Virus record (IMG/VR): IMGVR_UViG_3300001528_000378
Location: 64,001-128,000 of that record
DNA from: a virus
Taxonomy: Duplodnaviria > Caudoviricetes
DNA: 64,000 nucleotides
Strand: one strand, 5' to 3'
Part shown: positions 37,627 to 43,671 of the stretch, piece after piece
How the letters are laid out: every line of letters starts with the position of its first letter
Numbering within the stretch: the stretch's first letter is position 1
The notes under the pieces: generated by a model
What the model saw: only the letters and a program-made list of their open reading frames with translations
Told to the model about the DNA's origin: nothing
Databases searched by the model: none
Position numbers and translations under genes: made by a program

Positions 37627-37713
37627 GTGTCGTTGCCAGAATCGAACTGGCTCAATCGTCCTACGTTATAAACATCATCGGACATTTGCGTGCTACCATT
37701 ACACCAAACGACT
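37627..37713 (-). ncRNA. tRNA-like RNA with non-anticodon central arm, copy 1
   Basis: GTCGTT/AACGAC acceptor, GTGT-AATGGTA-GCAC D arm, GCCAG-TTCGATT-CTGGC T arm; centre GTCCGATGATGT..ACGTAGGACG shared with copy 2. Confidence 0.85.
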
Positions 37714-37717
37714 AAAA

Positions 37718-40705: not shown

Positions 40706-40792
40706 TGCCCACCCTTGGACTTGAACCAAGACAAGCGTCCTACGTACTAATTACATCATCGGACTTGTGCGTGCTACTTACACCAAGCGGGC
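40706..40792 (-). ncRNA. tRNA-like RNA with non-anticodon central arm, copy 2
   Basis: GCCCGCT/GGTGGGC acceptor, GTGT-AAGTA-GCAC, CTTGG-TTCAAGT-CCAAG; same invariant centre as copy 1. Confidence 0.85.
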
Positions 40793-40796
40793 AAAA

Positions 40797-41445
40797 TCCA
40801 CTGGAAAGTTAAACCCTTATACTCTCATAGCCCTATAAAAGGGCATCATATTTTAGCGATACTGGTCGCAAGGGAATTTAGATCACAGTGGTGTTCCCAG
40901 AAGCAATTTATCTAAGAACAAAGACACACCAACTGTGGTATGTGTGTGCCCCAACCAATAGTTCTTTACACTAGTTTTATAAGTACCACTCTTTCCTTCT
41001 AATGTCCACGGACTATTACGTGAGTCATTCAGACCATAAGCTATCCTTTCGCGGTAGCAGCTAGATCGGTTTCTAAGGCACCTAATCCGGCCCAGGTTGA
41101 GTTTTTAGTGTGGCTCAGCCTCATGTACATGGTTCGGCCTAAAAAGGACCATTCGGTGCATTTTAGGCCCAGGAATGTGTATGGTATTACACACCCTAAC
41201 TGTGCATCTTCTACGGGGTTTAACCGCAATTTCGGTAGCGGTCCTATGGTTCGCCAAGCTCACAGGGGAGCATGGGTTTCCTTGCGGTTCAAGGCATAGG
41301 ATGCGATTGTTCCTGGAAGAACAGGATTTCGTCACCAACGTTTATTTTCCCCTACACAGTTTACTACACTAGGAGGTAGTTTTAGGTCATAACTCCACGG
41401 ACCCCAGCTTCTCTGCTGGAACTGCAAAGCGCACTTCGCAGTATA
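40797..41445 (-). ncRNA. candidate large ornate ncRNA (~650 nt)
   Basis: GC-richer, no credible ORF, at least 12 consecutive hairpins, flanked by tRNA-type genes. Confidence 0.7.
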
Positions 41446-41454
41446 TTTACTAAA

Positions 41455-41539: not shown

Positions 41540-41568
41540 ACTATACTAAATTATTTTACTTTTGTCAA
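41540..41568 (-). promoter_or_regulatory. RNA-island promoter
   Basis: TTGACA-17-TATAGT; spacer near-identical to 42253-42281 and 43993-44021. Confidence 0.8.
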
Positions 41569-41944: not shown

Positions 41945-41975
41945 CAGTTGTTCTAATCGATTGAGCTATAAGCGC
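41945..41975 (-). pseudogene. 5' half of a tRNA (Arg-like)
   Basis: GCGCTTA TA GCTC AATCGATTA GAAC A ACTG, then breaks off. Confidence 0.6.
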
Positions 41976-42192: not shown

Positions 42193-42421
42193 GTCTTACT
42201 CACTTATTCATTTAAGCACACAAAACTTTCAAATATCAATTTACTTCTTATATATATACTAAATTATTTTACTTTTGTAAAGTATAAATCCTGCCAGATT
42301 TCACACCACTCTCCGGCTAAGCGTAGGGCCTATTTAGGTACCTTTTGCCATATCTATAATGTCGCGCTAGGCTTTACCCTATCGTGCGAGAGTGTTATAT
42401 TGACTAACATAACAAATTTAT

Positions 42422-42445
42422 TGCGCCCACAAGGACTTGAACCTA
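42422..42445 (-). pseudogene. 3' part of a tRNA (T arm plus acceptor strand)
   Basis: AGGTTCAAGTCCTTG TGGGCGC A directly after the endonuclease gene. Confidence 0.6.
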
Positions 42446-42454
42446 CCGTAATAT

Positions 42455-43291: not shown

Positions 43292-43387
43292 TGGCAGGTA
43301 CTGGACTCGAACCAGTAACACGGTCTTATCTGGGCCGCGCTTTACGGGGTTATAAATCCCGCCCTTTAACCATTAAGCTAACCTGCC
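43292..43387 (-). tRNA. tRNA-Ile(TAT) with long variable arm
   Basis: GGCAGGT/ACCTGCC A, loop TTTATAA, variable arm GCGCGGCCCAGATAAGACCGTGT, TTCGAGT. Confidence 0.85.
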
Positions 43388-43671
43388 ATTAAATCTATAT
43401 GAGATAGTTTTATATCTTGTCTCCAAGGATATTTTTACTACTTATCTCTAGAATCCCTACTCGCATAAGGGTTCCGTTACAACGACTAACTTAGTTAGGC
43501 ATGCGATTGATAGCTTTTTATTCTTAACTCTTTCGCTATTAAACGGGTTAGCCACCTACATTCCCACATCGCGCTTAGAATTTCAATCTTTATAATCATT
43601 ATTCAGCTTATAATTTTGATTGTCTAAGAGTCCGCGATAGAGTGAACTATTTAACGAACTATTTAAATCTT

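Follow-up and report, generated by a model that had tools for sequence, protein, structure and literature searches.

What does a stretch of some 650 nt that carries no apparent gene do between two tRNA-type elements of a large phage? The question is raised by the 64 kb of DNA analysed here (the window), which corresponds to bases 64001-128000 of an IMG/VR virus record of 158,131 bp with terminal repeats. Judging from its predicted proteins, which include a tail sheath, a baseplate protein, a portal and a terminase, the source is an uncultured phage of the myovirus type. The nearest cultured counterpart of the terminase is that of Bacillus phage G (29% identity), and contigs related to the phage originate from gut metagenomes. 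An earlier, sequence-only reading of the window had described the stretch as an ornate non-coding RNA candidate, GC-richer than its surroundings and holding only short ORFs. It had further suggested that this was either a divergent member of the GOLLD or ROOL RNAs or a new class, released by processing of the flanking tRNAs.

The element within its tRNA island

Coordinates and content of the stretch had been given correctly, and we place the RNA on the minus strand, which also holds all genes around it. The features of the unit are listed below from its 5' side.

about 41540..41568, minus strand: sigma-70-type promoter TTGACA-17-TATAGT, just upstream of tRNA-Thr
41528-41455, minus strand: tRNA-Thr(UGU), called by ARAGORN and Rfam, CCA encoded; the RNA element begins at the next base
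41454->40797, minus strand: RNA element, 658 nt between tRNA-Thr and the tRNA-like element; its core, 41454->40915, is about 540 nt
41362..41454, minus strand: 5' module, with a 12-nt AU-rich leader, a 9-bp hairpin with a UGCG loop, a 5-bp hairpin and a hairpin of the GGAG/CUCC type
41197..41361, minus strand: domain B, multi-branched, with a 13-bp closing helix (41361-41349 with 41218-41198) that holds five helices
41080..41196, minus strand: middle hairpins, namely GGGUGUGUA/UACACAUUC, a long GGCCUAAAA...UUUUUAGGCC hairpin and GGCUGAG/CUCAACC
40915..41079, minus strand: domain D and a terminal hairpin with a U-rich tail, the end of the core common to all copies
40797..40914, minus strand: optional 3' module of about 118 nt with three small hairpins
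40792-40706, minus strand: tRNA-like element, the downstream boundary, scoring 25.9 bits with the Rfam tRNA model, under the 29-bit cut-off
40696-40624, minus strand: tRNA-Ala(UGC), called by ARAGORN and Rfam, the next gene after the tRNA-like element in the same unit

The element is sharply bounded, starting one base after the CCA of tRNA-Thr and ending 4 nt before the tRNA-like element; in every copy described below, it ends 1-4 nt ahead of the next tRNA or tRNA-like element. Since its ends coincide with tRNA boundaries, release by tRNA processing, as had been proposed, is the natural reading. A consensus sigma-70-type promoter precedes tRNA-Thr at every RNA-bearing locus, and at the six such loci other than the window it takes the form TTGACA / TG-TATAAT, some 70-80 nt upstream of tRNA-Thr. 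The promoter core with the word ACAAAAGTAAAATAATTTAGTATA was found twice in the window, both times on the minus strand. The first copy (42250-42277) precedes an ORF-free stretch of about 270 nt (42240-41976), and the second (~41540-41565) is the one ahead of tRNA-Thr and the RNA element.

The claim that the stretch is GC-richer was borne out by comparison with the genome as a whole. The core has a G+C content of 46.5%, against a genome mean of 34% (sd 3.6% in 500-nt windows), and the 500-nt window with the highest G+C content of the entire 158-kb genome (0.48) falls inside it. All six reading frames are broken by mixed stop codons, with the three stops frequent in each. The ORFs that do exist are indeed short (31-77 aa, mostly with TTG starts) and are not conserved, being shifted in length or lost in homologs. 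We therefore rejected a coding reading, alternative genetic codes included, on the grounds that all three stops are frequent in each frame and no ORF is conserved. Taken at the level of its sequence, the stretch is thus supported as a structure-rich, non-coding RNA-type element within a tRNA transcription unit.

In the tRNA-like element, a conserved UCCGAUGAUG...ACGUAGGA centre replaces the anticodon loop, and a second copy is present in the window at 37653-37710. More broadly, tRNA-shaped elements in which a UCCGAUGAUGU...ACGUAGGA centre replaces the anticodon arm were observed at 40706-40792 and 37627-37715 (minus strand) of the window and at L016:13622-13720, on a contig of the relative G002. 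The tRNA-like element is 100% identical between the window and contig L027, and an exact-pattern scan of IMG/VR with its core returned matches only in this phage clade (relative G002). The 3' half of tRNA-Ala matches more than 120 GTDB genomes of many phyla and is uninformative on the host.

Further unusual tRNA-type sequences were observed in the island. A tRNA with the anticodon UAU (43292-43387, minus strand; 96 nt) carries an extra arm of about 30 nt; it scores 53 bits with Rfam and is called by ARAGORN in intron mode only. In its leader (43395-43430) is a hairpin of the form GGAG...CUCC, kept in many relatives upstream of this tRNA and similar to the third one in the RNA element's 5' module. 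The word ACCUCC, which resembles an anti-Shine-Dalgarno sequence, occurs nine times on the minus strand of the 158-kb genome, and three of these occurrences (41372, 39269 and 38229, minus strand) sit in non-coding RNAs of the 3-kb island, that at 41372 being in the 5' module; this clustering may be due to chance.

A tRNA-Met-like gene is present in two halves, in reversed order and about 450 nt apart (42420-42446 and 41949-41975, minus strand). Its 3' half, with T-arm and acceptor, directly follows an endonuclease ORF (43243-42455), and its 5' half, with acceptor and D-arm, lies just ahead of an ORF of 123 aa. In the relative G002 (L016:12836-13621), the same tRNA-Met is complete but split by a 712-nt group I intron with an HNH endonuclease ORF. 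The two halves in the window may have been left behind by intron or endonuclease traffic, or they may represent a permuted gene.

Copies in related phages and the tRNA-Thr junction

Exact-word scans for the element gave two chance matches in IMG/VR with a 17-mer and none there with an invariant 20-mer; none were obtained in JGI metagenomes (20-mer) or in GTDB genomes (21-mer). Homologs were instead reached via the gene of the 123-aa protein just upstream (41922-41551, minus strand), which has 82 homolog clusters in the ENA and Logan assemblies. Contigs were fetched for 12 of these clusters. They yielded six further full copies of the core on gut-metagenome contigs (L027, L040 with the identical L041, L030, L032, L044 and L045) and one copy interrupted by the contig end (L029). 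The seven full copies, the window included, are 540-548 nt long, 92-98% identical and 43-46% in G+C content, and the indels among them are of 1-3 nt each. Homologs less than 92% identical were not found in any collection searched, and a covariance model of domain D revealed no distant homolog in 330 kb of related DNA.

The element does not accompany every island of this type. Protein-profile searches for related islands returned one locus each from JGI metagenomes and IMG/VR, both without the RNA. It is also absent from the IMG/VR relatives G001 and G002, whose tRNA islands are intact, and from the loci P0003, P0063, P0077, P0079 and P0056. Short forms, in L033 and L048, retain only the first ~88 nt, such that the 5' module stands alone and is then followed by a terminator-like hairpin, the same one that directly follows tRNA-Thr in the empty loci L003, L034 and L042. 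The 3' module was seen in the window, L027 and L040/L041 only, and in each of these it is accompanied by the tRNA-like element and tRNA-Ala. It is absent from L030, L032, L044 and L045, where a tRNA-Asp begins about two bases after the core. Domain B, the middle hairpins and domain D (~450 nt) were always found together and never separately in ~25 related tRNA islands. The element is thus known from only one clade of uncultured gut phages, is patchily distributed over the tree of the flanking protein and, because relatives lack it or keep only 88 nt, is dispensable as far as these genomes indicate.

One association was invariable. The core always abuts tRNA-Thr(UGU), starting at the base after the encoded CCA, and tRNA-Thr is found at this position in each of the seven full copies as well as in the short forms L033 and L048. 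The tRNA-Thr genes concerned belong to three sequence types that are only 46-54% identical to each other. In L027 and L040, conservation extends to the promoter-leader upstream and to the RNA downstream, but the tRNA-Thr between the two has been exchanged. The exchange junction falls exactly at the first base of the RNA, which marks that base as a recombination or unit boundary. The type of tRNA-Thr found at L030:7096-7171, and also in L032, L040, L044 and L045, has an unusual T-arm (GCCGAGAGCAUAGCUCGG) and D-loop; ARAGORN calls it a tRNA, yet it is far from the consensus.

Predicted fold and sequence constraint

The RNAalifold consensus of the seven sequences comprises 147 pairs in 24 helices, among them two long closing helices that span 165 and 144 nt. 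All ten helices named in the sequence-only reading are present on the sequence, and eight of them recur in this consensus. As to the other two, GGCACAC/GTGTGTC is replaced in the consensus by an overlapping ACATACC/GGTGTGT helix, and GCCCT/AGGGC lies in the 3' module, beyond the consensus alignment, and pairs in the single-sequence fold. Little variation was seen in several of the modules: the 5' module is near-invariant (7 of the first 94 alignment columns vary in the seven copies), and the closing helix of domain B is invariant but for one G-C to G-U change. The middle hairpins show a 2-nt indel in an apical loop and G-C/G-U alternation at the base of the long hairpin. The terminal hairpin of domain D, with its U-rich tail near 40920, scores as terminator-like.

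Compared with dinucleotide shuffles, the core folds with a z-score of -3.0 on the RNA strand (none of 60 shuffles as good) and of -1.5 on the opposite strand. This signal is uneven along the element and is concentrated in the 165-nt domain B (41361-41197), where z reaches -3.7 on the RNA strand (none of 150 shuffles as good) against -1.6 on the opposite one; domain D (41079-40915) folds no better than its shuffles (z = -0.8). The alignment itself is too shallow to test conservation of the fold, since the copies are 92-98% identical. No pair is changed on both sides in the seven copies and covariation measures equal those of their shuffles, and the predicted folding of the whole 650 nt as one single large structure is thus unproven. 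Ten stem pairs alternate between G-C and G-U or A-U and G-U, each by a one-sided, wobble-compatible change, and 11 are broken in at least one copy. Variable columns make up 21 of 294 stem and 54 of 258 unpaired positions of the consensus fold, which is itself biased against pairing variable columns; with single-sequence folds they are also rarer in stems, albeit weakly (odds ratio 0.5-0.7, p = 0.008-0.22). In L030, a sub-hairpin of domain D with ~7 changes still folds as a 7-bp hairpin, in which an inserted A pairs with an opposite A-to-U change. A 10-nt palindrome, CAUGUACAUG, was considered as a dimerisation site and rejected; it is the sole long palindrome of the element and no better than expected by chance (P = 0.38).

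Such an uneven profile, with a strong energy signal only in domain B, would be expected if the element were a series of small, mutually independent RNA modules and spacer hairpins in a tRNA precursor, acting in processing, stability or protein binding and recombining as cassettes. The solitary 88-nt 5' part in L033 and L048 and the optional 118-nt 3' part suit this explanation, as do the hairpin similar to the GGAG one that precedes another tRNA in many relatives and the helix joining the 5' module to the remainder, which differs between the 5- and the 7-sequence consensus folds. We nevertheless regard it as rather unlikely, given that the central ~450 nt were never split, that the two long closing helices bridge large parts of the core, and that the length is constant among the full copies.

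The possibility that the tract has no function, being a transcribed spacer or what is left of a decaying intron, mobile insert or the like, and that it looks conserved only through recent ancestry and segment exchange, bears on how its identity among relatives is to be read. At the DNA level, identity is 65-91% for the adjacent 123-aa gene and 92-98% for the RNA, and between the window and L030 or L044 the RNA is 94% identical and the 2.3-kb coding flank 84%. Between L044 and L030, however, identity is lower in the RNA (92%) than in its flanks (95-100%), so that the RNA enjoys no special protection in this pair, and its high identity elsewhere could result from mosaic recombination. Because the genomes are mosaic, comparison with neighbouring genes cannot gauge constraint, and we discarded the neighbouring gene as a yardstick. 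This pair, the lack of covariation in the seven-copy alignment, the presence, absence and truncation of the element among close relatives, and the abundance of group I introns, endonuclease genes and tRNA fragments in these islands all speak for a neutral tract. A neutral tract of 540 nt, though, should drift toward 34% G+C and accumulate larger indels, which the seven copies, at 43-46% and with indels of 1-3 nt, do not display. The retained high G+C content, the tight length, the strand-specific folding signal and the sharp boundaries, with a well-defined start of the unit, are harder to reconcile with neutrality, as are the avoidance of stems by substitutions and the L030 hairpin that was rebuilt rather than lost. 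On balance, we consider neutrality unlikely.

Known RNA families and a proposed origin

Searches with Rfam 15 were run at gathering and E<=10 thresholds on the 64-kb window, on a 1.3-kb segment (1301 nt) and, with lax filters, on the 658 nt. Within the element, there was nothing but noise at E<=10; the only matches at the gathering threshold were tRNAs. The ROOL model (RF03087, gathering score 99.1 bits) had no match at E<=10 in the whole phage, the 1301 nt or the 658 nt. The whole-phage search with this model scored eight candidates and was without a positive control, as the control genomes were also empty. The GOLLD model (RF02032, gathering score 150 bits) likewise had no match at E<=10 in any of the three, with 31 candidates scored. 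Of the two options left by the sequence-only reading, detectable membership in GOLLD or ROOL did not hold up, and the part that stands is that no known family was matched. By these searches, the element probably represents a family uncatalogued in Rfam.

Introns deserved particular attention in this setting, because group I-type introns interrupt tRNA genes of relatives (tRNA-Met and tRNA-Leu in L016, tRNA-Leu in L032 and L037). In ARAGORN intron mode, the introns of these tRNA-Leu(UAA)/(UAG) genes measure 210-595 nt (L016:13730-14025, L032:5417-6096 and L037:5554-5839), and that in L016 matches Rfam Intron_gpI with 59.4 bits. An intron in a split tRNA was rejected for the element, as ARAGORN found none here, with introns of up to 1200 nt allowed, and did find them in relatives. 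A group I intron was rejected because the element sits between a complete tRNA-Thr and the next tRNA, has its 5' junction after ...UCCA and has no conserved terminal G. The group I model RF00028 detected two introns in L016 (59.4 and 42.2 bits) as a positive control and gave nothing at E<=10 on the element. These introns resemble the element in being structured, G+C-richer inserts that are patchily distributed in the same tRNA islands; unlike them, the element lies between genes and has no detectable group I core or splice-site features.

The same observations bear on a selfish mobile RNA-type element, such as an intron-like ribozyme or homing-endonuclease cargo, that would land specifically behind tRNA-Thr genes. 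Patchy distribution over the flanking-protein tree, the same position behind three tRNA-Thr genes that are 46-54% alike, near-identical RNA in divergent backbones and the splitting of relatives' tRNA genes by group I introns are all as such an element would have it. We find it improbable, since the model that finds both L016 introns is silent here at E<=10, and the element is not within a gene, has its 5' junction after the A of CCA rather than after a U and carries no ORF. Alignments of filled with empty sites moreover revealed no sign of terminal repeats or of target duplications, and the swap of tRNA-Thr can equally be read as replacement of a tRNA cassette beside a resident RNA. A very divergent ROOL or GOLLD RNA, finally, is highly improbable: a phage-borne RNA beside tRNAs with a ~540-nt core close to ROOL's 574 model positions would qualify, but RF03087 and RF02032 found no match at E<=10 even with lax filters on the 658 nt, and blastn of the element found none in the cultured phages of INPHARED or the plasmids of PLSDB.

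The element resembles GOLLD and ROOL only in its setting, that of a large ORF-free RNA in a phage tRNA island. GOLLD and ROOL were recently found to assemble into cages made solely of RNA; what they do is still unknown. GOLLD is a large phage-borne RNA in or next to tRNA arrays, at times directly downstream of a tRNA, as is the case here; it is typically longer than 800 nt and has a universally conserved 3' domain, whereas the core described here has 540-548 nt (at most 658 nt with the 3' module) and leaves the model of that domain unmatched. ROOL is a large ORF-free RNA of ~580 nt that occurs in phages and prophages, in many cases next to tRNA islands; it is non-essential, and its function is unknown (doi 10.1101/2024.12.08.627333). 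Location near phage tRNA genes, a similar length and the absence of an ORF are shared with the element, which differs in having neither a covariance-model match (E<=10) nor sequence similarity to ROOL; in addition, ROOL forms a homo-oligomeric nanocage, and the element is known only from the single clade of uncultured gut phages described above. A third case is Staphylococcus phage K (Kayvirus), a large myovirus with two long non-coding RNAs beside its tRNA genes (PMC9241854), which their authors compared with GOLLD and ROOL by position only (PMC9241854). The placement beside tRNA genes of a large myovirus is common to both, the phage K RNAs being of an abundant type, but the element has no blastn similarity to INPHARED phages and the present phage is unrelated to phage K.

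Two observations in relatives concern other parts of these islands. L016:9340-10710, in the relative G002, is an ORF-free stretch of 1.4 kb between the tRNA array and a promoter cluster with a weak tRNA-like element, within an ORF-free gap of 2.6 kb (tRNAs included) of ~40% G+C. It has no similarity to the RNA element and no Rfam match, and is a candidate for another large RNA region. In L027, the closest RNA-bearing relative, an ORF of 116 aa lies downstream of the cassette (L027:7877-8227). Its sole match is to the N-terminal HTH of IS605 OrfB/TnpB (27.4 bits), and it looks like a transposase fragment; nothing corresponding to it is present in the window.

Our preferred explanation, to which we assign a probability of roughly 0.55, is that the RNA 41454->40915 (extending to 40797 in the window) belongs to an uncatalogued family and is an accessory non-coding RNA made together with the tRNAs. 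We infer that the strong sigma-70-type promoter ahead of tRNA-Thr would drive a single precursor comprising tRNA-Thr, the RNA, the tRNA-like element and tRNA-Ala, from which the enzymes maturing the flanking tRNAs would excise the RNA. Its 3' end would result from RNase P cutting where the next tRNA or tRNA-like element begins. CCA-encoding tRNA precursors are poorly processed by RNase Z, and for this reason we propose that the 12-nt AU-rich leader behind the CCA would be cut by an endonuclease and then trimmed, which would set the 5' end before the stable 9-bp hairpin. The freed RNA would measure ~535 nt (~655 nt with the 3' module) and is predicted to fold into two multi-branched domains and several long hairpins behind the hairpins of its 5' module. 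By analogy with what is thought of GOLLD and ROOL, it may act in trans during infection as a dispensable fitness factor.

A more far-reaching version of this explanation, which we put forward only tentatively, is that the element constitutes a third class of large phage RNA beside GOLLD and ROOL: a trans-acting RNA of ~535 nt with a single fold, functionally coupled to tRNA-Thr. Such an RNA would always arise from a precursor in which it is fused to tRNA-Thr, regardless of which tRNA-Thr gene the locus has. The RNA carries a GUCCGUGGA motif twice, in which UGGA(G) is complementary to the (C)UCCA that the tRNAs share at their 3' end, and this motif might be the means of coupling. Were this version true, the RNA would have a role such as that of a self-assembling scaffold or of a decoy for a host factor.

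Should the RNA prove to be a neutral spacer, it would be a caution for scans that rank G+C-rich, ORF-free phage DNA highly. As it stands, the naturally occurring full, short and absent forms of the element, with their sharply defined ends, provide a ready-made comparison for function; that the element is strictly linked to tRNA-Thr, even though the tRNA gene itself has been replaced, offers a tangible lead that can be tested. If the element is indeed a further, unrelated family in the niche occupied by GOLLD and ROOL, this would suggest that phage tRNA islands generally carry large RNAs as accessories and that the two known families are not isolated curiosities.
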